IMG/VR virus record: IMGVR_UViG_3300027708_000019
Source: a virus
Length of the DNA: 64,000 nucleotides
Reading direction: 5' to 3' (one strand)
The notes under the pieces are model-generated. The model saw only the letters and a program-made list of their open reading frames with translations, had not been told where the DNA came from and searched no databases. The translations under genes were made by a program, and so were the position numbers. Of this stretch, positions 49,443 to 62,013 are shown in pieces; position 1 is the stretch's first letter; each line of letters opens with the position of its first letter.

Positions 49443-50502
49443 GCATTAGATCGTCTTCTGTGATATTTAATATCGAATCAAATACAGATTCTAATGTTTG
49501 CTCACGATCGCCACTGTTACTGTGCCATACTGTCATTGTCTGCGATGATTCGAAATGCTCTTTCATTTCAGAGTAATCGATATATACTGTTTTATCTTGT
49601 TTAAATTTCGGTTTCTGTAAATAGAATTCGGAAACCATTGCGAAAGATGTATCTTGATCATTCAAAATATCTTTTGATTTATCAAACATTGGGATCAATT
49701 CTGGCCAATGATTTTTTAAGAACAGTGGCTTTAAACAGTATTCGAATATTTTATTGTATTCATCGACTGGTATTAAATTTGGTGTGTAGATTAACTCTTG
49801 CGAATTGACAAACGACAACAGTTCTTTACTCATAATAAATGAAGCAATCAACTCTGGTGTGTATAAGAAGAAATTTGAAATAGCATTTTCTTCTCTGTCA
49901 ATGAAGTATTGTTGAATTGGCGATGATGGTATTTTCCAAGAGCATTCGCTATATGTAGTACCATCTATTCCGATTGGATATCTGTTTAATTCCATGAGTT
50001 TTCCAGATACAAAAAACCCACCATGTTCAAGTCTTACTTGTTCTTGAACCCATAGATTCATCAGTTCTTGCGAAGTAACAAAACTGTATTGTTTGATTAT
50101 TGGTGCGCAAAATTCTTTAAAGAAAGTTGGCATATGAATTTTAAACAACAAGTATCTGAGTTTAAATTTCTCACAAAATTTCTTTGCTTGTTGAACATCA
50201 TCTACGTTAAGATTGTTTCCCATTGATGGAATACAAATAGTAAAATCTAATTGCGCTTCCAACATTGAGAAACAAATCACTTGCGTATCGAGACTACTGT
50301 CCCACATAACATAAAGACGTCTTTGAGTTTGCTGAGAAATAGTGTCAGCTGCAATAATACACTCTTCACGGAATGAAGAATACTCACGTTTACATGCACC
50401 GATACCAACTCGCAAGGTTTGGGATTCTTGTGATTGATTATTAAACCACTTATTGTGATCCCATCCCCAACGAAAATGATTATTCAGTGTATACTGAAAC
50501 AT
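49420..50502 (-). CDS. Hypothetical protein, degenerate PP-loop (adenine nucleotide alpha-hydrolase-like)
   Basis: LYVMWDSSLDTQVI aligns with a hydrophobic-SGGxDS strand; D...A..FC.......L; F..YTPEL. Confidence 0.5.
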   Translation of the reverse strand: MFQYTLNNHFRWGWDHNKWFNNQSQESQTLRVGIGACKREYSSFREECIIAADTISQQTQRRLYVMWDSSLDTQVICFSMLEAQLDFTICIPSMGNNLNVDDVQQAKKFCEKFKLRYLLFKIHMPTFFKEFCAPIIKQYSFVTSQELMNLWVQEQVRLEHGGFFVSGKLMELNRYPIGIDGTTYSECSWKIPSSPIQQYFIDREENAISNFFLYTPELIASFIMSKELLSFVNSQELIYTPNLIPVDEYNKIFEYCLKPLFLKNHWPELIPMFDKSKDILNDQDTSFAMVSEFYLQKPKFKQDKTVYIDYSEMKEHFESSQTMTVWHSNSGDREQTLESVFDSILNITEDDLMLDNNTDL

Positions 50503-50984
50503 TATGCAGCCCTTGCGTAATCCATAACAAACTTCATTCTATCTGCAGCATATGAAGCAGCAAATGCTTTTGGTTTAACCAGAGGAACAACATTACACAT
50601 TCCCTTGATGTAACCAATCGCTTCATTGATAACGCAACTTGATCCATGCATTTCATTTGGATTAATATCTAAATGAACTTCAATATCATTTGGGATTGCT
50701 TGAGCAAGTTGTAAATAGAGATCGGCAACTTTATATACTTCGTTCATCAAACGCATACGAGGTTTGTCTTGCTTTTGATCAAAGTCTTGTTCTTTTTGAA
50801 TAGCACCAAAGATTTTACATCCATTGTTACCATTGATGTGAACAACAACAGCGAGAATATAATCAGCCATCCAGCCTTTATCAACTCGGTATCTTTCAGA
50901 GTCACAACCAATATACACTTTGGTATCTGGTCCACAGTTTTCAATAAACTCTCTCACTTCGTTGATATCAATTTCTCTTTTCAT
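50502..50984 (-). CDS. Ribonuclease H-like YkuK family protein
   Basis: YIG.DS; R...EV...; EVHLDIN; KP.A.AAS.AAD. Confidence 0.75.
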   Translation of the reverse strand: MKREIDINEVREFIENCGPDTKVYIGCDSERYRVDKGWMADYILAVVVHINGNNGCKIFGAIQKEQDFDQKQDKPRMRLMNEVYKVADLYLQLAQAIPNDIEVHLDINPNEMHGSSCVINEAIGYIKGMCNVVPLVKPKAFAASYAADRMKFVMDYARAA

Positions 50985-50998
50985 TACTTTCTCCTAAC

Positions 50999-51083
50999 TG
51001 GTGCGAGTAGCCAGAATCGAACTGGCACGACCGAAGTCGAGAGATTTTAAGTCTCTTGTGTCTACCTATTTCACCATACTCGC
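50999..51083 (-). tRNA. tRNA-Leu(TAA)
   Basis: Cloverleaf with long variable arm, AGAGA-CTTAAAA-TCTCT, CCA end. Confidence 0.95.
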
Positions 51084-51090
51084 ATTTACC

Positions 51091-51168
51091 TGGAGCACAG
51101 AGTGAGATTCGAACTCACGACTTTACGGATTTGCAATCCGTTGCATTTGACCTCTCTGCCATCTGTGC
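51091..51168 (-). tRNA. tRNA-Cys(GCA)
   Basis: ACGGA-TTGCAAA-TCCGT, U73, CCA. Confidence 0.95.
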
Positions 51169-51169
51169 A

Positions 51170-51703
51170 CTAATATGCCCACGCTACATACGTATACCTT
51201 ATACCCTTTGTTACTTCTGTTACACTATGTGGGTAGATAAAGGTTGATGGAAACATAATTATGTCTCCCTGCTTCATCTCTATTACTTCTTTGTTCAATA
51301 AAAATTGTCCACCATCATAGTTATCATTTAGTGCTCCCAAAAATGTTAGCACTGGAATACCATCTGTTTTATTTCTGCGTATCAGATCAAAATGTTCTGA
51401 CATCACAGTTCCAGTTTTATACTTGTTCAATCTTATATTGCTATGATTGCTTACAAGGTTTGTTAATTTTAACTCATCGTAGTATTTTTGTAAAGCAATT
51501 TGTAGATATGGTTTTAGAATATCCAAGTTTTTATTGTAAAGAACATCCAACTCTTTAGTGTGTTGTGGTTTCTTTTCATCAGCAACATTGTTATACCAGT
51601 TATGCGTTTTCCATTCTTCATCAGTATCGTACTGTTGAATTACAGTTTCACATATATCTTTGGGCACAACATTAAAAACTCTTACAAAATGTTTTACGTC
51701 CAT
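51170..51703 (-). CDS. 2OG-Fe(II) oxygenase, prolyl 4-hydroxylase-like
   Basis: Y..G..M.EHFD, LND.Y.GG.F, GD...FPS.F.YPH.V.EV.KG.RY. Confidence 0.88.
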   Translation of the reverse strand: MDVKHFVRVFNVVPKDICETVIQQYDTDEEWKTHNWYNNVADEKKPQHTKELDVLYNKNLDILKPYLQIALQKYYDELKLTNLVSNHSNIRLNKYKTGTVMSEHFDLIRRNKTDGIPVLTFLGALNDNYDGGQFLLNKEVIEMKQGDIIMFPSTFIYPHSVTEVTKGIRYTYVAWAY

Positions 51704-51712
51704 ACGTTTCCT

Positions 51713-51789
51713 TGGTGGGCTGAGTGGGATTCTAACCCACGATCAATCGATTATGAGTCGACTGCTTTAGGACTCTAAGCTACCAGCCC
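51713..51789 (-). tRNA. tRNA-Ile2(CAT) (lysidine type)
   Basis: GTCGA-CTCATAA-TCGAT and acceptor resemble ileX rather than Met tRNAs; CCA. Confidence 0.8.
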
Positions 51790-52023
51790 AAATTTTTTAC
51801 GAATAGCAGCTGGTGCCTGCGTTCCCATAATCCTGTCTACCTCAACACCATCTTTCATCAAGACCAATGTTGGTACACTACGAACTTTAAATTGATTTGC
51901 CATATCTGAATTCTCATCAATATCAACTTCTTCAACCTCAACTCCGAGTGGATCTTTCTCTAACATTTTAGATAAAGACTTACATGGTTGACACCAACTA
52001 GCACTAAACTTAATTACTTTCAT
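51775..52023 (-). CDS. trxA: Thioredoxin
   Basis: True start MKVIKF at 52023 (AGGAG RBS); F.ASWCQPCK, VRSVPTL. Confidence 0.9.
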   Translation of the reverse strand: MKVIKFSASWCQPCKSLSKMLEKDPLGVEVEEVDIDENSDMANQFKVRSVPTLVLMKDGVEVDRIMGTQAPAAIRKKFGLVA

Positions 52024-52040
52024 GTTTTCTCCTGTTAAAT

Positions 52041-52115
52041 TGGCCTCGCCAGCAGGAATCGAACCCACATTATAGGTGTAGAAGACCCATGTATTATCCG
52101 TTATACGATGGCGAG
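52041..52115 (-). tRNA. tRNA-Arg(TCT)
   Basis: TGGGT-CTTCTAC-ACCTA, CCA. Confidence 0.92.
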
Positions 52116-52122
52116 AAAAAAT

Positions 52123-52212
52123 TGGCGGTGAGTCAGGGAGTCGAACCCTGTCAGCTACTTTCATAACTGTACGGATTAGCAATCCGCTGCATTACCATCC
52201 TGCCCACTCACC
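52123..52212 (-). tRNA. tRNA-Ser(GCT)
   Basis: GCGGA-TTGCTAA-TCCGT, long variable arm, G73 CCA. Confidence 0.95.
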
Positions 52213-52348
52213 TTGTTACTTTACGTAGCAACTTATACCAGTAATATTTAAACCCTCTCCAAGTTGGGAGAAAATTCATGTCCCAGAAAAACCCAACTTC
52301 TTTGGGCACATTTCCGTACGCTTTTTGTAATGTTTCGTCTGACTTCAT
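52208..52348 (-). CDS. Small hypothetical protein (46 aa)
   Basis: MKSDETLQKAYGNVPKEVGFFWDMNFLPTWRGFKYYWYKLLRKVTR; ATGA overlap with upstream gene; stop inside tRNA-Ser 5' end. Confidence 0.65.
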   Translation of the reverse strand: MKSDETLQKAYGNVPKEVGFFWDMNFLPTWRGFKYYWYKLLRKVTR

Positions 52349-52926
52349 GTTGGTCCATTCCCATTTTTAAATCCAATCGTTCCACCTTCTTCTTTGATTC
52401 TGTCAATGACTTCTTCAAAAAGAATAGGACGAAAGTCAGTTTGTTCTACGCAAACGCAATGGTAACGTGTGTCAACAATGTCAGTAATTTTGCCACCAAA
52501 TCCAGGTAACATAACTCTATTGCTATGAGTATGTCCATGAATGTTGACACCAAACCTACCAAGACTTTCAGGATGAAGCGGAATATGTGAAAGAATCATT
52601 CCATTCATCACATGATATGCACGCAGTTCACGAAAGTGTTGACGATATTCTTCATCTCTAAAGATATCATGGTTACCACGAATCAGAACCTTATCGCCAT
52701 TCAGTCTACGCATGATTCCCAGTGCTTTCCTGTTAATCACTACGTCACCAAGATGATAAACTTTGTCTGTTGGTTTGACAGTTTCGTTCCATGCTTTTAC
52801 CATGGCTTCATCCATTTCCTCAGGATTATCCCAAGGACGAAGTTTTGTAACACCATCATTGCGAGTAAACTTACAAACACCCATGTGTCCGAAGTGAGTA
52901 TCGCTGACTAAAAATACGCTTGGCAT
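52345..52926 (-). CDS. Calcineurin-like metallophosphoesterase
   Basis: SDTHFGH, HLGDV, GNHD, SH.P, HGHTH motifs. Confidence 0.93.
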   Translation of the reverse strand: MPSVFLVSDTHFGHMGVCKFTRNDGVTKLRPWDNPEEMDEAMVKAWNETVKPTDKVYHLGDVVINRKALGIMRRLNGDKVLIRGNHDIFRDEEYRQHFRELRAYHVMNGMILSHIPLHPESLGRFGVNIHGHTHSNRVMLPGFGGKITDIVDTRYHCVCVEQTDFRPILFEEVIDRIKEEGGTIGFKNGNGPT

Positions 52927-52928
52927 AA

Positions 52929-53357
52929 TCACTCCTCCTTGTAAGTTAGTCCAAGAACCTGCATCAATTTTTTCTTCACACGAAGATTTGGTTGACGATA
53001 ATTATCAGTTGGTGTAAATCCCATCATGGTCGCAACTTCAACAACTGCCCCACTGCGACAAATACCAGCAAAACAATGAACGACTACATTCATACGCTGA
53101 TCAAGTGCGCGATTCAACAGAGCAATAATATTTTCTGCTTGCTCATCCTGAAATTTACACTCATCAGGAAAATCATCCTCATCCTCAGCATCAAGAAATT
53201 CAAATTCATGAACCTCTTTGAAGTTGTGTTTGGGGTTTGGCTTCCAACCAGCAGGATCGGTAATGCTAATAAGCATAGCATTCGGTCCAGCATCGTAGTG
53301 AAATCCAGTGTTTACATCAGAAGCTGCTACGTTTTCGATAAATCTAATTGTTTCCAT
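52929..53357 (-). CDS. Protein-tyrosine/dual-specificity phosphatase-like protein
   Basis: VHCFAGICRS (CX5R) motif; ISITDP; PN..V. Confidence 0.88.
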   Translation of the reverse strand: METIRFIENVAASDVNTGFHYDAGPNAMLISITDPAGWKPNPKHNFKEVHEFEFLDAEDEDDFPDECKFQDEQAENIIALLNRALDQRMNVVVHCFAGICRSGAVVEVATMMGFTPTDNYRQPNLRVKKKLMQVLGLTYKEE

Positions 53358-53363
53358 ACCTAT

Positions 53364-53392
53364 ATTATACCTGATTATTGCTTAAAAGTCAA
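53364..53392 (-). promoter_or_regulatory. sigma70 promoter TTGACT-17-TATAAT, positioned for a leaderless transcript
   Basis: -10 ends 6 nt before ATG 53357; no RBS. Confidence 0.75.
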
Positions 53393-53412
53393 TACCCCTG
53401 GAAACTCTTATC

Positions 53413-53488
53413 TGGAGCGGGAGACGAGACTCGAACTCGCGACATCTTGCTTGGCAAGCAAGTGCTCTACCAACTGAGCTACTCCCGC
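53413..53488 (-). tRNA. tRNA-Gly(GCC)
   Basis: CTTGC-TTGCCAA-GCAAG, U73 CCA. Confidence 0.95.
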
Positions 53489-53491
53489 ATT

Positions 53492-53567
53492 TGGCACCCC
53501 CTGATGGACTCGAACCACCGCATGTCGGAATCAAAATCCGATGCCTTACCAACTTGGCGAAGAGGGT
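53492..53567 (-). tRNA. tRNA-Gln(TTG)
   Basis: TCGGA-TTTTGAT-TCCGA, CCA. Confidence 0.93.
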
Positions 53568-53576
53568 ATAATAAAT

Positions 53577-53650
53577 TTGTGGCAGGTGAGGTATCTAGTC
53601 ATTGTCTAGACAACGACTTGCCCATTCTCCTTTTACTTTCCTTACCACAA
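53577..53650 (-). ncRNA. Candidate small structured RNA between tRNA-Trp and tRNA-Gln
   Basis: Closing stem TTGTGGT.AGG / CCT.GCCACAA; internal hairpin AGTCGTTGTC..GACAATGACT. Confidence 0.45.
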
Positions 53651-53653
53651 AAC

Positions 53654-53727
53654 TGGCATCCCGATAGGGACTCGAACCCCAACCAACAGTTTTGGAGACT
53701 GCTATGCTGCCATTACACCATCGAGAT
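53654..53727 (-). tRNA. tRNA-Trp(CCA)
   Basis: GCAGT-CTCCAAA-ACTGT, CCA. Confidence 0.93.
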
Positions 53728-53731
53728 ATTT

Positions 53732-53998
53732 TTACTTTTCTATAACAGCGACAACATGTTCTTCAGTAAGAATAACACGTTGAGCACCTTCAAGAACAAC
53801 AATCTGTGACTTGCCCCAATCAATGAGAACAACATCACCAACATTAACAAGTGTTACTTCTGGACCAACAGCCAACACAGTCGCAGTTTTAGATTCGCGA
53901 GTTGAGTCAGCACCTTCAAGGATAATTCCTGATGCAGTTTTTGTTTCTGCTTTATTCTCTGCAACAAGAACACGTTTTCCTAATGGTTTTGCAATCAT
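53732..53998 (-). CDS. groES: Co-chaperonin GroES (copy 1)
   Basis: KPLG.RVLV......KTASGIIL; TVLAVGP.V..V.VGD.V. Confidence 0.9.
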   Translation of the reverse strand: MIAKPLGKRVLVAENKAETKTASGIILEGADSTRESKTATVLAVGPEVTLVNVGDVVLIDWGKSQIVVLEGAQRVILTEEHVVAVIEK

Positions 53999-54070
53999 AA
54001 TAATCCTCTGTTATTTTAAATTAGTGACATACTACTTATCCTTTTATACTCCGTATGTCAGGGAGAGGTT

Positions 54071-54159
54071 TGGCGGAAGAACTGAGATTCGAACTCAGGG
54101 ACCTTGTTACAGTCGGCAGTTTTCAAGACTGCTGGTTTAAACCACTCACCCACTCTTCC
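54071..54159 (-). tRNA. tRNA-Ser(TGA)
   Basis: GCAGT-CTTGAAA-ACTGC, long variable arm, CCA. Confidence 0.95.
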
Positions 54160-54167
54160 TTAAACTT

Positions 54168-54242
54168 TGGCACCCAATGAGAGAATCAAACTCCCAACCC
54201 AGCGTTCGTAGCACTGTGTGATATTCATTTCACCAATCGGGT
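54168..54242 (-). tRNA. tRNA-Arg(ACG)
   Basis: CAGTG-CTACGAA-CGCTG; atypical T-loop TTTGATT; CCA. Confidence 0.88.
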
Positions 54243-54244
54243 AT

Positions 54245-54319
54245 TGGTACCTCGTGACAGATTCGAACTGCCGACCTTCTCCGTGTAAAAGAGACACTCT
54301 ACCACTGAGTTAACGAGGC
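54245..54319 (-). tRNA. tRNA-Val(TAC)
   Basis: TCTCT-TTTACAC-GGAGA, CCA. Confidence 0.95.
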
Positions 54320-54320
54320 A

Positions 54321-54596
54321 TTATTCTTCAATGAGCATTAAGATTTCTTTCTCAGAAACCATAACTCTTTTCTTTCCTTCTACATCAATCTCGTGTGCTT
54401 TATGCCAATTCACAATACACACATCACCTATTTTTACAGTCTTAGTATCTGGACCAATGCCAAGTACAGTACAGTGCCAAGTGTTTCCACCAACACCATT
54501 TTCTTGACCAAGATCTAACTCAATACCACTTGCTGTTTTTGTATCTTTCTTGTTCTTAGCAAGATAGACCATATCTTTAATTGGTTTAATTTCCAT
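54321..54596 (-). CDS. groES: Co-chaperonin GroES (copy 2)
   Basis: KPI.D.V.L......KTASGI.L; TVLGIGPD...VKIGD; SE.EIL. Confidence 0.85.
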   Translation of the reverse strand: MEIKPIKDMVYLAKNKKDTKTASGIELDLGQENGVGGNTWHCTVLGIGPDTKTVKIGDVCIVNWHKAHEIDVEGKKRVMVSEKEILMLIEE

Positions 54597-54598
54597 AA

Positions 54599-55300
54599 TT
54601 ATCCTTTAATATAACCTGCTTTAATGTGTTCTTCAAGTGTAAGATATCCGTATTCTTCTGGCTTTGGATAAACATACTGATCATAATGGTCAGAGTTTGT
54701 TCTTCCAACTGGCATACAGTTTGCTCCAATAATCATTCTATATGTGCTTGGCGATGGTAGAGCTACATGATTTGCCCAAGACGGAAATATAATTGCCGTT
54801 CCTGGAACAAATGGAATCTGTTCTTGAATCGAGAAAAACTTTCTCGCACCTTTTTTAATTCTAGGCACAATCTGAAACAGATTAGCATTATGATTCTTAA
54901 AAGCAGTACCATTCGCATTACCATCTATATCAAACAAATACAAAACACCTGCTAGAAAGGTATTGGCATGAACATGTTCATGGTGATTGCCACCTTGCTT
55001 ATGTCTGGTTGCCCACATTGATGTAATACCAATATCTTTTTCATAACCACATTTATCCATCACATCCTCAAAACATGATGTAAAAAATTCTGTAACTTCA
55101 GACAGTTGAGGATGTAATGTTTTATCATTTAAATTACCATCAGTAATTTGTAAACCATTACGTTCTCTTTCAACAAAAAAGTTTTTGTCTTGAGCCAAGT
55201 ACGTTGTCAATTCCTTTTGTTTCTTCTGAAAATCAGGAAACTGATAACGCCAAACTGGTGTCGGAAAGAAATCGTGACGATCTAAAAAATTATTGTTCAT
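54599..55300 (-). CDS. 2OG-Fe(II) oxygenase (TIGR02466-like)
   Basis: FPTP, SMW....GG.H.EHVH.N..L.GV.Y, G...IFPSW..H...P.....R.II..N. Confidence 0.85.
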   Translation of the reverse strand: MNNNFLDRHDFFPTPVWRYQFPDFQKKQKELTTYLAQDKNFFVERERNGLQITDGNLNDKTLHPQLSEVTEFFTSCFEDVMDKCGYEKDIGITSMWATRHKQGGNHHEHVHANTFLAGVLYLFDIDGNANGTAFKNHNANLFQIVPRIKKGARKFFSIQEQIPFVPGTAIIFPSWANHVALPSPSTYRMIIGANCMPVGRTNSDHYDQYVYPKPEEYGYLTLEEHIKAGYIKG

Positions 55301-55526
55301 CTACTTTCTTACCCCAATCAGACACATTCCAAGCACGTTCATGGAAGAAGTACATAATGCTATTTACGACAAGCGCAAAACTAACAACACCAAGTCCTAC
55401 CATCCAGCTACCACTTGCTAACCAACCACCAATAAAATTGGTAATCGTCACAAGGATACGCCATGTAATAACTTTAGCAAGAGATCGTGGAATACGTTCT
55501 TGAAATTTCGTTTTAAAATTAAACAT
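55290..55526 (-). CDS. DUF2061-like small membrane protein
   Basis: RSLAKVITWRI...YFFHERAW..WG motif. Confidence 0.8.
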   Translation of the reverse strand: MFNFKTKFQERIPRSLAKVITWRILVTITNFIGGWLASGSWMVGLGVVSFALVVNSIMYFFHERAWNVSDWGKKVDEQ

Positions 55527-55542
55527 AATAATTCTCCAAAAT

Positions 55543-55571
55543 GAAAAAAGAGCTGGGGTTTATTCCAACTC
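55543..55571 (-). terminator. Intrinsic terminator after dctP
   Basis: GAGTTGG-loop-CCAGCTC + TTTTTT. Confidence 0.65.
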
Positions 55572-55575
55572 TTTT

Positions 55576-55604
55576 ATTATACTTTACTTTTGATTATTTG
55601 TAAA
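55576..55604 (-). promoter_or_regulatory. Early-type promoter TTTACA-17-TATAAT
   Basis: -35 at 55599..55604, -10 at 55576..55581, upstream of the DUF2061 gene. Confidence 0.6.
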
Positions 55605-55610
55605 GTTTTT

Positions 55611-56555
55611 TTATGCTTCCTGTATTCGTTGGACTAATCCAGGACTAAAGTATGTAGAGAATCGAGTATATACTTTGGATGTTAATTCTTTAAATTTCGA
55701 TTTCTCTGTTTCATTCATTCTTACTACTTCAACATTATTATCTGCGCATTGTTGTAAGATGTTTGGTATATCTGCTACCGAAGTTTGTCTTTCTTGTCTA
55801 GCAGCATTAAATGCAGCTGTTGACATAATTTCTTGAGTAGCTTCATCAAACTGACTGAAGAATTGTTTATTGACAATAATTGATGTCAAAAACAAACTAT
55901 GTTCAGTGTCATTAACAACTTCGAATGTTTTATGCTGCTCTAGTGGGAACACACGAACGTATGTTGATTCACCAGCTTCAATAAGACCTTGCTCAACAGC
56001 AGAATGCATTTCTTCTAAAGAGATACGATCTTTTGGCACAGCACCAAGCATTTTAAATGTCTCAACAGCAACTGGGCTGCGAGCCACACGAACTTTTTTA
56101 CCACGCCAAGAATCAACTGTATCAGCACGGAAATTAGCAGGAACAATTCTGAACCCACCTGAATATGTAAAACTCATTGCCTTCGTGTTGGAATTTTTCT
56201 CCACACTTGAAAGCAACTCTGCACCGATTTCGCCTTCTAATACACGATCAGCATGATCATGATCTTTGAATAAGAAAGGTAAATCTAATGCATGTAAATC
56301 TTTGTTGTAGTCAGCCAACCATGTTGTGTAGATATGGCTCATTTCAATTTCGCCAGAATCAATCAACCCCATTAAGTCGTCTTTCATAATGTGTTTGCCA
56401 TCATTGTATTTTTCTGAATAATCAGACAATGATAGAACTTCGCACTGGAAATTACCACCAGTCTTTTCATTTACTTCGGCTACAAATGCCTCAGCTACTT
56501 TTACAAAGTAGTCAATTGGTTCATGGGCAATCACCCAACGAATTGGTTTTGTCAT
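55611..56555 (-). CDS. dctP: TRAP transporter substrate-binding protein DctP-like, no signal peptide
   Basis: F...V.EKT.G; G.IEM; LDLPFLF.D.DHA..VL.G.IG..L; GGFR; G.KVRV; F..LGA.P; A..QG.I.A.E; T.H. Confidence 0.85.
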   Translation of the reverse strand: MTKPIRWVIAHEPIDYFVKVAEAFVAEVNEKTGGNFQCEVLSLSDYSEKYNDGKHIMKDDLMGLIDSGEIEMSHIYTTWLADYNKDLHALDLPFLFKDHDHADRVLEGEIGAELLSSVEKNSNTKAMSFTYSGGFRIVPANFRADTVDSWRGKKVRVARSPVAVETFKMLGAVPKDRISLEEMHSAVEQGLIEAGESTYVRVFPLEQHKTFEVVNDTEHSLFLTSIIVNKQFFSQFDEATQEIMSTAAFNAARQERQTSVADIPNILQQCADNNVEVVRMNETEKSKFKELTSKVYTRFSTYFSPGLVQRIQEA

Positions 56556-56588
56556 TTTATCTCCTGATATAAGGTACTATTACAACCT

Positions 56589-56596
56589 TATTTATA
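56589..56596 (-). promoter_or_regulatory. T4-type late promoter TATAAATA upstream of dctP
   Basis: Exact motif ~35 nt before ATG 56555. Confidence 0.7.
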
Positions 56597-56599
56597 TGA

Positions 56600-57862
56600 C
56601 TAATTTGGCCAATCTATATCATAACGCTGTAAATGGTATTTAAAATATCGTCTTACAGATAGGTTTTTTCTGTTCAAGATTTGGTAGTTGGAATCAAGTC
56701 CAAGTAAATGACGTCCTCTAACATCTTTTCGAACTTCCCTTGGTTTGCGTTTTGAGTTCAAATTTCCCAAAGATTCCAGCTTGGTTTTGAAATGGAAGTA
56801 CCAGTCGTTCTTGTCTAGATCGTAGATATATTGTCGCTGAGCATATTTGTATGTTGCAAGAGTACTACCAATTTTCTGACCATTGTTATTGTTAGCCATA
56901 CTCCATTGTTGATATTCGCCACCATTATACCAGTTTTCCATTGAGTCAATACATTCGCGAATCGGTATGGTATAATTAAAGTAGATCGCACCACGAACTG
57001 AACAATTTAAATACTTGACATTAAAAATTAACCACCAAAAGAAATCGTGTAAACTATGAATAGGAACAGATCCAGTATTGGCATTATGAACATACTTATG
57101 GTACAACAGCCTACCAAACTCACGACCCTCTGGTGTATTGTTATATGATAGATGTTTGATAATTAAATCTTTATACAAACTATAATGAGCATCAGCAGAA
57201 GATATCTTATTTTTGATTGACAATAAGTTTTGTCTTACCTCAGGACTTAAATCCTGAATGTAGTAATCGTAGTTGTGGTATAATTGTAAACCAATTGATG
57301 TACCAAAAATACAATCACCTTCGTCTGCAGTAATTGGTCTATAACCATCACGAATTAAATCATCATAGAAACATGTATATGAATCAATTACTTTTAATTT
57401 ATTGTGTATAAATTTTTCCCAGAATACTGGATTTTCAGCAATACTATGTATGCTGGCGCAGACAACAACTGATTTTAATTCTTCTTCATTTAAGTTTTTA
57501 ATCAACGAAGCAAGAACCAGTGTACTATCCATACCACCAGAATACATCACAACAAGTTTCTCACCATTATGAATTCTTTGACGCATTTGAAGCGCACGTT
57601 CATCAGTAACTTGTTCATACGATTTTGAGAAGTTTGGATCATATGGTGGCATTTCAAATCCAGGAATCAAAGGTTGTTTCCATGGCAACGACCACTCGCC
57701 ATTGCGTGTGACAAATCTATTTTGCGTTAGACGTTTTGCAATATCAATGTAGAACTTTCCACCTGCGCCACATTCTTCTCTGGTCTCTGCCCAGAAACCT
57801 TGTTGTGGGGTTTGGTCTAGTCGAATGTTATAAAAATAAATTGGGTCGTCTAATGCTATCAT
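56600..57862 (-). CDS. PP-loop (adenine nucleotide alpha-hydrolase / asparagine synthase-like) protein
   Basis: VVMYSGGMDSTLVL and IT.DEGD.IFG motifs (asparagine-synthase-like SGGxDS and tGegaDelFg). Confidence 0.65.
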   Translation of the reverse strand: MIALDDPIYFYNIRLDQTPQQGFWAETREECGAGGKFYIDIAKRLTQNRFVTRNGEWSLPWKQPLIPGFEMPPYDPNFSKSYEQVTDERALQMRQRIHNGEKLVVMYSGGMDSTLVLASLIKNLNEEELKSVVVCASIHSIAENPVFWEKFIHNKLKVIDSYTCFYDDLIRDGYRPITADEGDCIFGTSIGLQLYHNYDYYIQDLSPEVRQNLLSIKNKISSADAHYSLYKDLIIKHLSYNNTPEGREFGRLLYHKYVHNANTGSVPIHSLHDFFWWLIFNVKYLNCSVRGAIYFNYTIPIRECIDSMENWYNGGEYQQWSMANNNNGQKIGSTLATYKYAQRQYIYDLDKNDWYFHFKTKLESLGNLNSKRKPREVRKDVRGRHLLGLDSNYQILNRKNLSVRRYFKYHLQRYDIDWPN

Positions 57863-58575
57863 AAAATTTTCAGATTTGGAACTTCATCAAGGAATTTATA
57901 ATACTCATTGGCAAGAGTAACAACTTTGTTGTAGTCTTTCTCCCAAACACCTTTGATATTATCACGTGCTTCTTCAACACTGTTTGACATATAAAGTTGT
58001 TTCTTTACTTCTTTAATTACACCATCTTCAAATTTGGTTGCGTCTCTATATAATGTTACACCATTCAACCAGTCATTTGGTAAATATTGTTCAGCAAAAG
58101 TTTTGTTATCAACATAATTGACAATCGTATTAGATAAACTCAAAGCATATACACATCTATTAACATACTCAGCGTATTCTTTCAGCTGAATTAACTTATC
58201 GTATCTACTACCTGTGTCAAATTCTTTTGGTAATCCAACTTCAACAAGTTGTGTTGCGTCGTTTAACACTTTTACTGTAGGAATTTGACTGGTAATTAAA
58301 TCAGCAGCAGCACCACGTTTCTCTGCTGTCTTATTGAACACCATGTAATTTAAACAGTTATCATTGGTCATACCACTAGTAATTTTGGGCAGAACATAAA
58401 CTGTGGTCGCGATCTTTGAAGACAAAAGTTGAGCGGTCTGCAGTGTAATCCAGTAATCATAATCATCAAGCATAAGCCAACGATCAAAAATCTGACAGTA
58501 GATACCATTCGTTCTTCTATTTCCTTCCTCGTCGTAGTACATGTTATCTACGATTTTAATAGTGTTACGTTGCAT
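57859..58575 (-). CDS. Hypothetical protein (238 aa)
   Basis: AAGGA RBS; ATGA coupling to the PP-loop gene. Confidence 0.75.
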   Translation of the reverse strand: MQRNTIKIVDNMYYDEEGNRRTNGIYCQIFDRWLMLDDYDYWITLQTAQLLSSKIATTVYVLPKITSGMTNDNCLNYMVFNKTAEKRGAAADLITSQIPTVKVLNDATQLVEVGLPKEFDTGSRYDKLIQLKEYAEYVNRCVYALSLSNTIVNYVDNKTFAEQYLPNDWLNGVTLYRDATKFEDGVIKEVKKQLYMSNSVEEARDNIKGVWEKDYNKVVTLANEYYKFLDEVPNLKIL

Positions 58576-58588
58576 AATTTATCCTTAA

Positions 58589-58662
58589 TGGTGGAGGATG
58601 AGAGAATCGAACTCTCAATAATGACTTGCAAAGCCATGGTTATCCCATTTAACTAATCCCCC
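58589..58662 (-). tRNA. tRNA-Ala(TGC)
   Basis: G3:U70 pair, ATGGC-TTTGCAA-GTCAT, CCA. Confidence 0.95.
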
Positions 58663-58665
58663 AAT

Positions 58666-58743
58666 TGGTCTCAGTAGAAGGATTCGAACCTTCGACCCCC
58701 TGCTCCCAAAGCAGGTGCGCTAACCAGACTGCGCTACACTGAG
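58666..58743 (-). tRNA. tRNA-Pro(TGG)
   Basis: CCTGC-TTTGGGA-GCAGG, CCA. Confidence 0.95.
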
Positions 58744-58750
58744 TTAATTT

Positions 58751-58825
58751 TGGTGGTGATGGTTGGATTCGAGCCAACGACCCCCTGCGTATGAAGCAGA
58801 TGCACTACCACTGTGCTACATCACC
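58751..58825 (-). tRNA. tRNA-Met(CAT), elongator-like
   Basis: TCTGC-TTCATAC-GCAGG, paired 1:72, CCA. Confidence 0.85.
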
Positions 58826-58832
58826 GAAATTC

Positions 58833-58915
58833 TGGTGCCCCAAGAGAGACTCGAACTCTCACGCTTGCGCACTGGCTTCTAAGACCAGCGTGTCTACCAA
58901 TTCCACCATCGGGGC
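58833..58915 (-). tRNA. tRNA-Leu(TAG)
   Basis: CTGGT-CTTAGAA-GCCAG, variable arm, CCA. Confidence 0.95.
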
Positions 58916-58934
58916 ATACTTCTACTTCAATAAA

Positions 58935-59008
58935 TGGTGCCCCCACACAGAATCGAACTGCGGATTGATGCTTACAAGGCAACTGTTATACCATTTAACT
59001 ATGAGGGC
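58935..59008 (-). tRNA. tRNA-Thr(TGT)
   Basis: GTTGC-CTTGTAA-GCATC, CCA. Confidence 0.93.
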
Positions 59009-59014
59009 AATAAC

Positions 59015-59089
59015 TGGCTCCAGTGGCTGGGATCGAACCAACGACCAATTGATTAACAGTCAACTGCACTACCGCTGTGCTACACTGGA
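59015..59089 (-). tRNA. tRNA-Asn(GTT)
   Basis: GTTGA-CTGTTAA-TCAAT, G73 CCA. Confidence 0.95.
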
Positions 59090-59097
59090 ATAATGAA

Positions 59098-59313
59098 TTT
59101 GTAAGTTGTGCCACCATCGTTATTGGCACCATTCACCTGTTTATACAAGGGCGACCAGGACTCGGTACGTCACTTGGGATTCATCCAGTTGATACGCCAC
59201 CTGTATACCTCCACCGTAAACGGCGATAAGTCGGAATCGAACCGCAACCTTTTACTAACTTGGTCCTTCGAAGAAACTTCATTAGCATGACTTCACTTGC
59301 TGACACTTACAAA
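59098..59313 (-). ncRNA. Candidate ~215-nt structured RNA containing a T-loop motif
   Basis: 9-bp closing stem TTTGTAAGT/ACTTACAAA filling the fMet-Asn spacer; internal CGG-TTCGATT-CCG; GTGCCA..TGGCAC hairpin; GC-richer than other spacers. Confidence 0.6.
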
Positions 59314-59316
59314 ACT

Positions 59317-59393
59317 TGGTAGCGGAGGTTGGATTCGAACCAACGATTCTTGGCTTATGAGACCAAGCGGATAGACCACTTCCATACACCGCA
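59317..59393 (-). tRNA. tRNA-fMet-like (CAT)
   Basis: Mismatched 1:72 (T:T), GCGG acceptor, CTCATAA loop; anticodon stem GGT/GCC rather than GGG/CCC. Confidence 0.8.
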
Positions 59394-59435
59394 ACAATTA
59401 TATTATGTATATATCTGTTACATACATAAAACAAC

Positions 59436-59511
59436 TGGTGGGACTGCTGGGACTCGAACCCAGAATTGGCAGATTAAAAGTCTGCTGTGATAACCATTTC
59501 ACTACAATCCC
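59436..59511 (-). tRNA. tRNA-Lys(TTT)
   Basis: GCAGA-CTTTTAA-TCTGC, CCA. Confidence 0.95.
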
Positions 59512-59543
59512 ATTCGCTTTCGAACTTTCGTCTTTCGTTTCAT
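59502..59543 (-). CDS. Lys/Arg-rich minigene MKRKTKVRKRMGL ending inside tRNA-Lys
   Basis: Strong RBS TAAGGAGA-AAGTA-ATG; stop TAG at nt 8-10 of tRNA-Lys. Confidence 0.5.
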   Translation of the reverse strand: MKRKTKVRKRMGL

Positions 59544-59563
59544 TACTTTCTCCTTAAAAAAAT

Positions 59564-59638
59564 TGGTACCCAAGGGTGGGAACGATCCACCGACCCTCGC
59601 CTTATCAAGACGATGCTCTACCACTGAGCTACTTGGGC
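59564..59638 (-). tRNA. tRNA-Ile(GAT)
   Basis: TCGTC-TTGATAA-GGCGA; T-loop ATCGTTC; CCA. Confidence 0.92.
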
Positions 59639-59646
59639 ATTATTAT

Positions 59647-59722
59647 TGGTGCTGCCTAGTAGAATCGAACTACTTTCAATGGTTCTTCAAACCACCGCTA
59701 TGACCACATCAGCTAAAGCAGC
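59647..59722 (-). tRNA. tRNA-Phe(GAA)
   Basis: GTGGT-TTGAAGA-ACCAT, CCA. Confidence 0.9.
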
Positions 59723-59724
59723 AT

Positions 59725-59799
59725 TGGGGTGTCGTATGAGAATTGAACTCATGATGACGGAATCACAATCCGTAGTTTTACCACTAAACTAACAACACC
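59725..59799 (-). tRNA. tRNA-His(GTG)
   Basis: G-1:C73, ACGGA-TTGTGAT-TCCGT, CCA. Confidence 0.95.
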
Positions 59800-59805
59800 A
59801 TAAGA

Positions 59806-59880
59806 TGGCGGTCTCAAGGGGTAACGATCCCCTTCTTCGACAGTGACAGTGTCGTGTGCGTCCATGAACACTTTGAGACC
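59806..59880 (-). tRNA. tRNA-Asp(GTC)
   Basis: CGACA-CTGTCAC-TGTCG; T-loop ATCGTTA; G73 CCA. Confidence 0.92.
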
Positions 59881-59884
59881 TGAA

Positions 59885-60006
59885 TAAGTTGGCATTACGA
59901 AGTTTAGCCGTGCATCTTTCGTGCGCACCGAATAGACTGACTGACGTCAGCCCCAAATAACACGCTAGACCCTTTGTCTAGATTGACAGCAACGATAGTT
60001 GCTGTT
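59885..60006 (-). ncRNA. Candidate structured spacer RNA between tRNA-Tyr and tRNA-Asp
   Basis: Hairpins ACAGCAAC/GTTGCTGT, CTAGAC/GTCTAG, GTGC..GAAA..GCAC. Confidence 0.4.
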
Positions 60007-60008
60007 TA

Positions 60009-60093
60009 TGGTGGATGCGGTTGGAGTCGAACCAACAGTGCCAGAGGCGGGAGATTTACAGTCTCCTGGGGTTACCAGTTTTCCTACACATCC
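60009..60093 (-). tRNA. tRNA-Tyr(GTA)
   Basis: GGAGA-CTGTAAA-TCTCC, variable arm, CCA. Confidence 0.95.
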
Positions 60094-60213
60094 ATTAGTA
60101 GAATTCTCTGCACTATTTGCCTACGTTCAACAGCTTTACTCGAGTTTACTGTTTATTGCGTAAGTTACATAACGAATGATCAATCCTCTGTGCTTACAGA
60201 GAATTCTACTAAT
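60094..60213 (-). ncRNA. Candidate ~120-nt RNA closed by a perfect 17-bp stem
   Basis: ATTAGTAGAATTCTCTG (60094..60110) is the exact reverse complement of 60197..60213; fills the Gly-Tyr spacer. Confidence 0.6.
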
Positions 60214-60286
60214 GGAGCGGAATATCAGAATCGAACTGATGACCGAAGATTGGAAATCTGCTGTTTTACCATTAAACTAATCCCGC
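60213..60286 (-). tRNA. tRNA-Gly(TCC)
   Basis: AGA-TTTCCAA-TCT anticodon arm (outer pairs mismatched), U73 CCA. Confidence 0.9.
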
Positions 60287-60290
60287 AACT

Positions 60291-60561
60291 ATATGGCAAC
60301 CTGAGTGTCTCACGACAAGTCTGCTACCATAGTAAAATACATGAGGATGATCAGCAACAACCATCACCCGATGGCTAACCACGTATTCGTCATACGATTG
60401 GTTGCTTCTCACATTACGTTCCAACTTTCTCCAGCGTGACCACCGTATCCACCTTTCGGCTTCGTTTCCATCTTTCGTGTAATCTAGCGAGAGCCAATCC
60501 GTCGATTGGTTATCCTCTCCTAGATCACCTACTGGTTTTGGTAACCCAATGCATTTTACTA
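60291..60561 (-). ncRNA. Candidate ~240-270-nt structured RNA between tRNA-Glu and tRNA-Gly
   Basis: 18-nt inverted repeat 60325..60342 / 60549..60566 (one G.U); internal hairpins CCAATC..GATTGG, TCTAG..CTAGA, CC-GAAA-GG, TGTC-GTGA-GACA. Confidence 0.6.
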
Positions 60562-60637
60562 TGGTACTCGATGGGGGAATCGAACCCCTCCTTCCTGCCG
60601 TGAAAGAGCAGTGTCCTAACCGATAGACGAATCGAGC
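60562..60637 (-). tRNA. tRNA-Glu(TTC)
   Basis: CTGCT-CTTTCAC-GGCAG, CCA; first tRNA of the array. Confidence 0.95.
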
Positions 60638-60650
60638 ACATGGTGAACAA

Positions 60651-60683
60651 ATTTTTAAAGAACAGTTGGCTGGGCTTTGCCCA
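60651..60683 (-). promoter_or_regulatory. rrn-like boxB hairpin + boxA antitermination signal
   Basis: TGGGC-AAA-GCCCA followed by TGTTCTTTAAAAAT (rrn boxA consensus TGCTCTTTAACA) just before the first tRNA. Confidence 0.7.
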
Positions 60684-60750
60684 TTTAATGTTTCCTGCTC
60701 AGCGTTTTGCTTTTCAGCGTGCTTCGCGTTTTGAAACAACCTCAGAAACA

Positions 60751-60779
60751 ATTATATCTCATTTCTGTTTATTTGTCAA
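60751..60779 (-). promoter_or_regulatory. Perfect sigma70 promoter (TTGACA-17-TATAAT) for the tRNA array
   Basis: -35 at 60774..60779, -10 at 60751..60756. Confidence 0.88.
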
Positions 60780-60800
60780 GCACTATTTCTAGTAGCCTAC

Positions 60801-60837
60801 AAAACAAAAAACCCCAAGGACTTTCATCTCTTGGGGT
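60801..60837 (-). terminator. Intrinsic terminator (attenuator terminator)
   Basis: ACCCCAAG-A-GAT-GAAA-GTC-CTTGGGGT then TTTTTGTTTT. Confidence 0.88.
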
Positions 60838-60860
60838 ACTTTGGTTTGGAAACTTTTCGT

Positions 60861-60980
60861 TTACCTTACCGTACCCCCACGAATCTCTGGATTGTTATAG
60901 CCAAATGCTGATGTGCGTGTATCTCCAGCCCATGACTTCATGGTCTTATGACTTTGGAGATGTAAACACATTTGTAACAT
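60861..60980 (-). CDS. Putative attenuator leader peptide, 39 aa containing all 20 amino acids
   Basis: MLQMCLHLQSHKTMKSWAGDTRTSAFGYNNPEIRGGTVR*; AAAGGA upstream; last codons carry GGGGTAC complementary to the terminator 5' arm. Confidence 0.7.
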   Translation of the reverse strand: MLQMCLHLQSHKTMKSWAGDTRTSAFGYNNPEIRGGTVR

Positions 60981-61016
60981 TTGAAATTAAAATCCTTTTC
61001 ATTCATCGAGGTATCA

Positions 61017-61045
61017 ATTATACCTCTTTTATTTATATAAGTCAA
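61017..61045 (-). promoter_or_regulatory. Composite promoter: TTGACT-17-TATAAT with nested late TATAAATA
   Basis: -35 61040..61045, -10 61017..61022, TATAAATA 61030..61037; drives the leader ORF. Confidence 0.8.
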
Positions 61046-61329
61046 GCACTATTTTCAGTTGTTTCGGAAAATATTTTTGACCATGTTTGAAGTTTATTCA
61101 ACTTCTCATTCTTCGCAGTCATAACAGCAGCTTCGCTAACGATACCGCTGTCAATCAGCAAGTCAATCATACACATTAAATCACCAACTTCTTCTTCAAG
61201 ATGTTGTCGATTGCTCAATCCTTTGAAGAAATCGTCAGCACCAAACCGAAACACTTTACTAATCGCCTGAGTTACCTCGGCACATTCTTCCTGCGTAATC
61301 AGCAGGATTTCTTTTTGTACTTCATTCAT
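61042..61329 (-). CDS. MazG-like nucleotide pyrophosphohydrolase
   Basis: EECAEV.QA.SK..RFG.......L.EE.GDL motif. Confidence 0.8.
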   Translation of the reverse strand: MNEVQKEILLITQEECAEVTQAISKVFRFGADDFFKGLSNRQHLEEEVGDLMCMIDLLIDSGIVSEAAVMTAKNEKLNKLQTWSKIFSETTENSA

Positions 61330-61463
61330 CACTTCAATTCCTTTTCCTCAATATACCATTCTTGCAAATCGTAGTATTTCGCAGCTTTTTCTGCTTCTTC
61401 TCTACTACGATATACTGCTAGGTTATCGCCTTCGTCAATCAGAATGTAAACATATGTCTTCAT
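61329..61463 (-). CDS. Small hypothetical protein (44 aa)
   Basis: MKTYVYILIDEGDNLAVYRSREEAEK...; GGGGAG RBS; TGATG coupling. Confidence 0.7.
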   Translation of the reverse strand: MKTYVYILIDEGDNLAVYRSREEAEKAAKYYDLQEWYIEEKELK

Positions 61464-61494
61464 ACGCTTAACTCCCCAATCTTTTTCTGATTCA

Positions 61495-61752
61495 TTATGC
61501 GTACTCATAAAATTTAACAGTCGGATCCAACTTCTGAAGTTGTTGGGCTACAGTTGTCAACTCGCGATACTTCGCTTGAACCACACTGCGTGGCAACTCA
61601 CCATCACAAGTCAAATTCTCAGGACTCAAGTCAGCATGAATTTTATCTGCCAAACTTTGACGATCGGCATGACTATCGAGACTGTATTGTTTACCTTTGA
61701 AAATCGAATTCCACTGGTTTGTCTTGGCAACATAAGCATTTAACTGTTTCAT
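61495..61752 (-). CDS. Hypothetical early protein (85 aa)
   Basis: Start MKQLNAY with AAAGGA RBS; LSPENLTCDGE motif. Confidence 0.75.
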   Translation of the reverse strand: MKQLNAYVAKTNQWNSIFKGKQYSLDSHADRQSLADKIHADLSPENLTCDGELPRSVVQAKYRELTTVAQQLQKLDPTVKFYEYA

Positions 61753-61782
61753 TTCAAGTTCCTTTTTGATCATCATAAGATA

Positions 61783-61811
61783 ATTATACGTCTAAACCGA
61801 ATTTATGTCAA
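61783..61811 (-). promoter_or_regulatory. Perfect sigma70 early promoter (GTGC-TTGACA-17-TATAAT)
   Basis: -35 61806..61811, -10 61783..61788; GTGCTTGAC shared with the promoters at 60779 and 61045. Confidence 0.85.
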
Positions 61812-61900
61812 GCACTTTCTTTAATAACCTTACAGTCTGTAGGGGTATCTGTAAGTCCTTGAAAGTAAACGATTTGTTTTAGGACTGTAACTCTTAGGTC

Positions 61901-61953
61901 TAACTAGAAACCCAACACCGCTATTATACACCGACTGTTAATTAATGTCAAAT
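61901..61953 (-). repeat. Promoter-containing 53-bp element, copy 2
   Basis: ATTTGACATTAATT-N9-TGTATAAT-N4-GTGTTGGGTTTCTAGTTA, matches 14189..14241. Confidence 0.8.
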
Positions 61954-62013
61954 GCTTTTCCGAACCCCCCAAAGGGATAAATATAATTCGAATCCCATAA
62001 AAACAATAAAAAA

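Follow-up and report, generated by a model that had tools for sequence, protein, structure and literature searches.

What a phage gains from carrying tRNA genes is an active question, with codon usage, the decay of host tRNAs and evasion of tRNA-cleaving defenses all under consideration, and tRNA genes themselves are regarded, to our knowledge, as controlled at their promoters and by processing, not by attenuation. A 39-codon open reading frame (ORF) lying ahead of a large tRNA array in an uncultured freshwater phage raises the question of whether such an array can instead be placed under the control of translation. A preliminary description of this DNA had read the ORF and the hairpins that follow it as a leader-peptide attenuator that senses every amino acid. 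Here, we examine that reading in a 64,000-nt stretch of DNA (the window, below), taken from an IMG/VR virus record of 105.9 kb with an estimated completeness of 65%. That record encodes a baseplate protein whose counterparts in large cultured phages (infecting Pseudomonas, Vibrio, Pelagibacter or cyanobacteria, with Kyanoviridae cyanophages among them) are distantly related to it, at ~30-35% identity. The element and the genes that it precedes comprise the following features, in the order in which they would be transcribed:

61017-61045, minus strand: promoter P1, TTGACT-17-TATAAT (11/12), predicted to drive the leader and conserved in close relatives
61030-61037, minus strand: the motif TATAAATA, nested within P1
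61001-61012, minus strand: 5'-UTR segment ACCUCGAUGAAU, which can pair with AUUCGUGGGGGU (60873-60884); candidate anti-antiterminator
60993-60997, minus strand: Shine-Dalgarno-like AAGGA, 12 nt ahead of the ATG
60861-60980, minus strand: leader ORF encoding all 20 amino acids in 39 sense codons, of which 31 are distinct, and closed by TAA
60930-60943, minus strand: mid-ORF hairpin (CCAUG-AAGU-CAUGG), a candidate pause signal for RNA polymerase whose end falls on the only Trp codon
60833-60877, minus strand: antiterminator hairpin, whose 5' arm (GGGGUAC GGU..GG..AAAC) covers the last five codons and the stop codon (60861-60863) and whose 3' arm ends in GUACCCC
60801-60836, minus strand: intrinsic terminator, in which CCCCAAG (60836-60830) pairs with CUUGGGG (60818-60812) and is followed by UUUUUUGUUUU (60811-60801)
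60751-60779, minus strand: promoter P2, TTGACA-17-TATAAT (12/12), downstream of the terminator and ahead of the tRNAs
60653-60683, minus strand: small hairpin (60671-60683) and boxA-like TGTTCTTTAAAA (60653-60664), immediately ahead of the first tRNA
50999-60637, minus strand: 26-gene tRNA array serving all 20 amino acids and interspersed with protein genes; presumed target of read-through

The features on which the preliminary description had built its proposal (P1, the ORF, the GGGGTAC/GTACCCC complementarity, the terminator, P2 and the 26 tRNAs) are all present at the positions it gave, and a recount of the 39 codons returns the same 20 amino acids and 31 distinct sense codons, among them GGA/GGC/GGG/GGT, CGC/CGT/AGG and ACC/ACA/ACG. 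GGGGTAC (60877-60871) and GTACCCC (60839-60833) are paired in the predicted antiterminator hairpin just as the preliminary description had drawn it; this hairpin has a folding energy of -19.8 kcal/mol (z = -3.4) that is equaled in 1/200 shuffled sequences. The terminator, a 7-bp G+C-rich stem followed by U6GU4, has its CCCC in common with the antiterminator. The whole transcript has a minimum free energy of -70.4 kcal/mol (z = -5.0), and the consensus fold shows one compensatory pair in the ACCUCGAUGAAU/AUUCGUGGGGGU pairing. One further claim, that the TATAAATA motif nested in P1 serves as a late promoter, is not supported by the motif's frequency: its count in the window is at chance level, with 6 copies found against 5.7 expected and no enrichment. 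All six copies lie on the minus strand (2776, 8650, 14251, 25189, 56589 and 61030), and the one at 56596-56589 is 34 nt before the start of a DctP-like gene. A P1-type promoter region also recurs as a second copy, 80% identical over 62 nt, elsewhere in the same phage record (L002, G000:C1:77866-77927).

The protein genes within the array, all on the minus strand, encode a Cpn10/GroES-like protein (54321-54596), a DctP-family solute-binding protein (55611-56555), two 2OG-Fe(II) oxygenases (54599-55300 and 51170-51703), and a DSP-phosphatase-like protein and a metallophosphoesterase (both within 51170-58575). A 420-residue protein (56600-57862) has a weak PP-loop match, below the Pfam cut-off, and might be TilS- or QueC-like.

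A single 39-codon ORF with all 20 amino acids is, alone, weak evidence for an all-amino-acid sensor. A random peptide of 39-40 residues contains all 20 amino acids with P = 0.6-0.9% (~0.7% for a peptide of this length), and the same full content is found in 0.6% of 1,913 other 36-45-codon ORFs from the same loci. Because the ORF is unremarkable by this test, the verdict had to rest on relatives of the element. As a route to homologous loci we used a neighboring MazG-like gene, for which IMG/VR contains more than 600 relatives. Among the best 80 MazG-like loci, the element recurs as a close copy in 4, and a DNA pattern search added 2 more; inspection of the sequence ahead of the first tRNA at further MazG loci then revealed diverged homologs, and a pattern built on their hairpin arms led to ~80 further loci. 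Roughly two thirds of the family were retrieved by a pattern that fixes the outer antiterminator stem, so the conservation of that stem is partly built in. The resulting collection holds 73 distinct leader peptides of 32-45 residues, all from IMG/VR phages, with a median pairwise identity of 45% and a minimum of ~10%, in keeping with the anticipated family of short ORFs of poorly conserved sequence. In every member with enough downstream sequence (68/68), a tRNA gene lies on the same strand 19-403 nt after the leader, at the head of arrays of up to 31 tRNAs. Comparison across these genomes establishes the anatomy of the element, its conservation and its link to tRNA arrays.

A profile search of 1.84 billion proteins returned only 5 small relatives, all of which have 20/20 amino acids when their sequences are read. 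Neither the window element nor a type-B element had a blastn match among 50,697 cultured-phage records, and an Rfam cmscan of positions 50000-62000 at E-values up to 1 gave hits solely to tRNAs or by chance, none of them at 60800-61045, and no match of the element to the Trp, His, Leu or Thr leader families or to the T-box. Among the relatives' genomes, the arrays downstream of two leaders (L107 and L145) include a tRNA with anticodon CTA, of the amber-suppressor type, and a 174-kb relative carries an ARAGORN-predicted tmRNA with the tag ANESSFLMAA (L095:1508-1881, plus strand) ~4 kb upstream of its leader. A cultured phage offers a separate observation: in Synechococcus phage BUCT-ZZ01, a 46-codon ORF (L198:1740-1925, minus strand; ON615601.1 129339-129524) lies upstream of an array of ~30 tRNAs and contains 19/20 amino acids, lacking Gly; coverage of 19/20 arises by chance in ~15% of cases (iid simulation, 45 residues). 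The GGUGCU directly after its stop codon repeats the 3' arm of the next terminator, AGCACC-GCAA-GGUGCU-U7, and a 75-codon gene and a promoter lie between the ORF and the array. This arrangement of ORF and terminator may represent a comparable switch in a phage that can be cultured.

The leader frame behaves as a coding frame throughout the family. It is open in 73/73 members, compared to 3 and 0 for the other two frames, which average 2.8 and 3.7 stops, and indels between close relatives keep the frame. Leaderless mRNA geometry, with the -10 hexamer ending 6-7 nt short of the ATG, is seen in 43 members, and 27/29 members that do not have this close promoter spacing, the window included, carry an SD-like motif of the AAGGA type upstream. 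From this pattern of open frames and start signals, we infer that the leader is translated.

What the leaders have in common is their amino acid content. All 20 amino acids occur in 56/73 leaders and 19 in another 15/73, with 18 in the remaining 2/73, both of which are only 32 residues long; the amino acid diversity foreseen in the preliminary description is thus conserved alongside a stop codon that lies in the antiterminator 5' arm in all members. Thinning the family to below 50% identity leaves 20/20 coverage in 5/8 representatives, and with the last five codons removed 53/73 leaders still contain all 20 amino acids. The most compact case of complete coverage fits 20 amino acids into 36 codons, or 31 without the hairpin arm. 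Coverage extends to codon boxes: all 23 (20 amino acids plus both boxes for each of Ser, Leu and Arg) are represented in 47/73 leaders, against a null of 1.1e-4, and under strict wobble rules the leaders offer a cognate codon for ~94% of the distinct anticodons of their downstream arrays. Enrichment in the sensed codons, a hallmark of attenuators, takes an unusual form here, in that all 20 amino acids are represented with no tandem runs. Cys, Asp, His, Trp and Tyr each appear exactly once in 67-72/73 leaders, where a Poisson distribution would leave ~26 leaders without each of them.

These single-copy residues are kept in the leader even as they change place. The columns occupied by Cys, His, Tyr, Asp and Gln vary among members (the Trp column does not shift); for example, MHKQ-LPL leaders have no His at the K-H-LPL column, and vice versa. 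In 33 disjoint pairs of leaders, a single-copy residue was replaced at its own column 58 times, and in 46/58 cases it reappeared elsewhere in the partner. This is about threefold the 15-16 reappearances expected (z = 9.6), and 0/5000 simulations reached 46. Taken across the compared leader sequences, these patterns show selection for full amino acid coverage, mostly with one codon for each amino acid, and not for a particular peptide sequence. Coverage is incomplete in 17/73 leaders, which have no codon for one or two amino acids, most often Val. The amino acids missing from these leaders do not match the tRNAs missing from their own arrays; for instance, one leader lacks Val (L111), yet its array encodes a tRNA-Val.

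The hairpins that follow the coding region are conserved as alternatives to each other. All 66 distinct 3' regions can form an antiterminator of -15 to -30 kcal/mol whose 5' arm holds the last codons and the stop codon, and a terminator of -11 to -17 kcal/mol. In 66/66, the antiterminator 3' arm overlaps the terminator 5' arm by 4-9 nt, the overlap that in the window includes the shared CCCC, and folding calculations show the two hairpins to be mutually exclusive, as had been proposed from the window alone. Antiterminator z-scores range from -1.6 to -7.0 and are at or below -3.4 in 14/16; the weak hairpins are those of two subfamily members, L004 (z = -2.0) and L014 (z = -1.6). The covariation expected of the two structures is also present. 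The terminator stem covaries without a broken pair in 66 sequences (pairs 3-6: UA/CG, CG/AU, GC/UA/AU and AU/GC), and the antiterminator covaries (GC/UA, AU/UA/GC and CG/UA) in 13 sequences that were found independently of the hairpin sequence. For antiterminator pair counts, MAFFT alignments were unusable, with arms out of register between subfamilies, and we relied on per-sequence folds and anchored pair tables instead. Nearly all members (97%) have the mid-ORF hairpin, which occurs with 37 distinct stem pairs and with compensatory changes of the kind CCAUG/CAUGG to CCAUC/GAUGG to CCAC/GUGG, and which again ends on the single Trp codon. This hairpin may serve as a polymerase pause signal.

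To relate ribosome position to hairpin choice, we used a crude equilibrium footprint model that holds 27 nt around the A site unpaired. With the ribosome at the stop codon, the model yields the terminator in 73/73 members, and typically does so over the last 8-10 codon positions as well. A ribosome stalled at codons 4-13 or 22-31 of the window leader yields the antiterminator, so that both halves of the switch suggested by the preliminary description, termination when the ribosome reaches the stop and read-through when it stalls upstream, are reproduced in the model. Only 20/39 window codons, specifying 15 amino acids, give the antiterminator at equilibrium; the Trp, Asp, Glu, Ile and Val codons do not, and the sole Val codon lies inside the hairpin arm. 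For one of the members with a weak antiterminator (L004), the model predicts termination from nearly all stall positions. Ribosome-free transcripts behave in a mixed manner across the family, forming the antiterminator in 46 and the terminator in 21. The free window transcript is predicted to form the terminator, because its 5' UTR pairs with the G-run.

We propose that the element is a ribosome-mediated (leader-peptide) transcription attenuator that heads the phage tRNA array and senses the decoding of all amino acids, with a leader kept complete by selection; on the comparative evidence above, we regard this as the likely explanation by a good measure. Transcription would start at P1, and the 39-codon leader would be translated as it is synthesized. 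A ribosome that decodes all codons would cover GGGGUAC when it arrives at the stop codon, leaving GUACCCC free for the terminator, and transcription would end at 60811-60801. When an aminoacyl-tRNA is scarce, the ribosome would stall early, the antiterminator would sequester the CCCC, and polymerase would continue into the tRNA genes, passing P2 and the boxA-like site on the way. In the window subfamily, a transcript that is not translated probably also terminates, through pairing of the 5' UTR with the G-run, which would give a three-state logic like that of trp. The net effect would be negative feedback that couples tRNA gene transcription to decoding capacity. By the same reasoning, ribosome stalling within the leader, and a response of read-through to it, would be expected upon starvation or the action of tRNA nucleases.

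The interval from the terminator to the first tRNA contains a promoter-like site scoring at least 9/12 in 40/68 relatives, as it does in the window (12/12). In 23/68 relatives, the first tRNA follows ~60 nt past the terminator with no promoter-like site above 8/12 between them, and the arrays of these phages would thus depend on read-through from the leader promoter. In the window, P2 follows the terminator, and the switch can therefore only add to P2-driven transcription of the array. In this genome, the element is probably a modulator alongside a constitutive promoter and not a gate, as the preliminary description had itself cautioned. A boxA-like TGTTCTTTAAAA is found in 32/66 relatives, mostly 28-31 nt ahead of the first tRNA; the E. 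coli rrn boxA is TGCTCTTTAACAA. In sequence and position, the boxA-like site and the small hairpin beside it suggest rrn-type antitermination of the tRNA transcript.

The attenuator model has to be weighed against other accounts of the same locus. One is that the switch is coupled to translation in general, reporting ribosome availability, host shut-off, ribosome-targeting toxins or antibiotics, or that its main output is the short terminated RNA or the peptide. The modeled architecture reacts to any ribosome that fails to reach the stop codon, the leaderless geometry makes initiation itself variable, P2 limits any effect on the tRNAs in the window, and an attenuator of this broad kind exists in the uORF of whiB7, which reacts to many translation insults (PMC10274678). 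A sensor of general capacity, however, has no need for every amino acid, and selection for 20/20 coverage, the presence of both Ser, Leu and Arg boxes, and codons that match the array all point to the decoding of specific tRNAs, as does the invariable tRNA context. We consider this account unlikely, if the best of the alternatives.

Less probable still, and in our view quite improbable, is that the ORF is an ordinary small early gene for a functional 39-residue micro-protein, with its own promoter and terminator and an incidental position next to the array. Some motifs are conserved at the peptide level, including W..R(T/P), GY and a C-terminal GGFGK or GGTVR; the unit is bounded by a promoter and a terminator of its own; and the window's tRNAs are served by a different promoter. 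The conserved motifs, however, coincide with RNA helices, namely the mid-ORF hairpin and the antiterminator arm. Full amino acid coverage is retained even as identity falls to ~10% around a median of 45%, and single-copy residues relocate instead of holding position. A plain gene end would also not need a second, stronger hairpin that contains the stop codon and overlaps the terminator, and no second promoter serves the tRNAs of 23 relatives. That the locus instead encodes a structured, non-coding small RNA (a long hairpin and terminator in which the ORF is fortuitous), a reading prompted by the very stable transcript fold (-70.4 kcal/mol, z near -5) and by compensatory changes within the ORF, is scarcely credible and is rejected on the frame conservation (73/73 against 3 and 0, with in-frame indels) and the selection on amino acid coverage, and further opposed by the fixed distance of the ATG from a -10 hexamer or SD-like motif and by the want of any matching Rfam family.

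If the element is a leader-peptide attenuator, as we propose, its likely purpose can be considered. We lean, with some reserve, toward the idea that in phages with full tRNA sets it forms a homeostatic and possibly counter-defense circuit, in which a leader with one codon per amino acid audits every tRNA species and boosts the whole array when any one of them is depleted, whether by starvation, host tRNA decay or anticodon nucleases. So compact and conserved a switch suggests that these phages follow decoding capacity in real time and tune their tRNA supply to it. A full-text literature search found no description of attenuation of phage tRNA genes; if our proposal is true, these would be, as far as that search shows, the first published tRNA genes under ribosome-mediated attenuation, and the leader would be the first attenuator selected for complete amino acid coverage. 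The element would also provide a natural minimal reporter of translation stress, and, as the family is large and easily recognized, the idea is directly testable with reporter constructs.

Attenuation by leader peptides is familiar from the amino acid operons of enterobacteria, with trpL, hisL, leuL and pheL as well as the multivalent thrL and ilvL. The phage element shares with trp/his-type attenuators a promoter, a short leader, mutually exclusive antiterminator and terminator hairpins, and a stop codon placed where a terminating ribosome blocks the antiterminator; in the window, the likeness extends to a candidate 1:2-type pairing and a mid-leader hairpin as a possible pause signal. Unlike the enterobacterial leaders, the phage leader has no run of one regulatory codon and devotes approximately one codon to each amino acid, and many phage members are predicted leaderless mRNAs. 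The enterobacterial systems control biosynthetic enzymes, whereas the phage element heads phage tRNA genes, and the two have no sequence or Rfam relationship. The phage element would in this way extend the trp/his paradigm to an all-amino-acid sensor.

Two other bacterial systems resemble parts of this arrangement. The T-box binds one uncharged tRNA directly, with no ribosome or ORF involved. Like the T-box, the phage element would couple tRNA charging to the choice between terminator and antiterminator upstream of translation-related genes, but it would sense all tRNAs indirectly, through their decoding. The likeness to rrn-type boxA leaders lies in the boxA-like TGTTCTTTAAAA and small hairpin between the terminator and the first tRNA, found in the window and about half of its relatives; in the phage, however, this putative boxA-like site lies beyond the attenuator and forms a module distinct from it.

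In function, the closest precedent is the uORF attenuator of whiB7 (wblC) in mycobacteria and other actinobacteria, a broad-spectrum attenuator that works by ribosome stalling (PMC10274678). The whiB7 uORF of M. smegmatis contains 19/20 amino acids and is enriched in alanine, that of M. tuberculosis is without several amino acids, and the sequence varies between species (PMC10274678). Sensing of Trp starvation there depends on one Trp codon, single codons decide which shortage is detected, abolished translation leads to read-through, and basal read-through increases when the start codon is lost (PMC10274678). The same paper reports no selection for full amino acid coverage (PMC10274678). The resemblance to the phage element is in logic only: the two are unrelated in sequence and host, and what lies downstream in this virus record is not a WhiB-like regulator but tRNA genes. 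The whiB7 attenuator serves a host stress regulon, with a transcription factor as its target, whereas the phage element would feed back directly on the supply of tRNAs.
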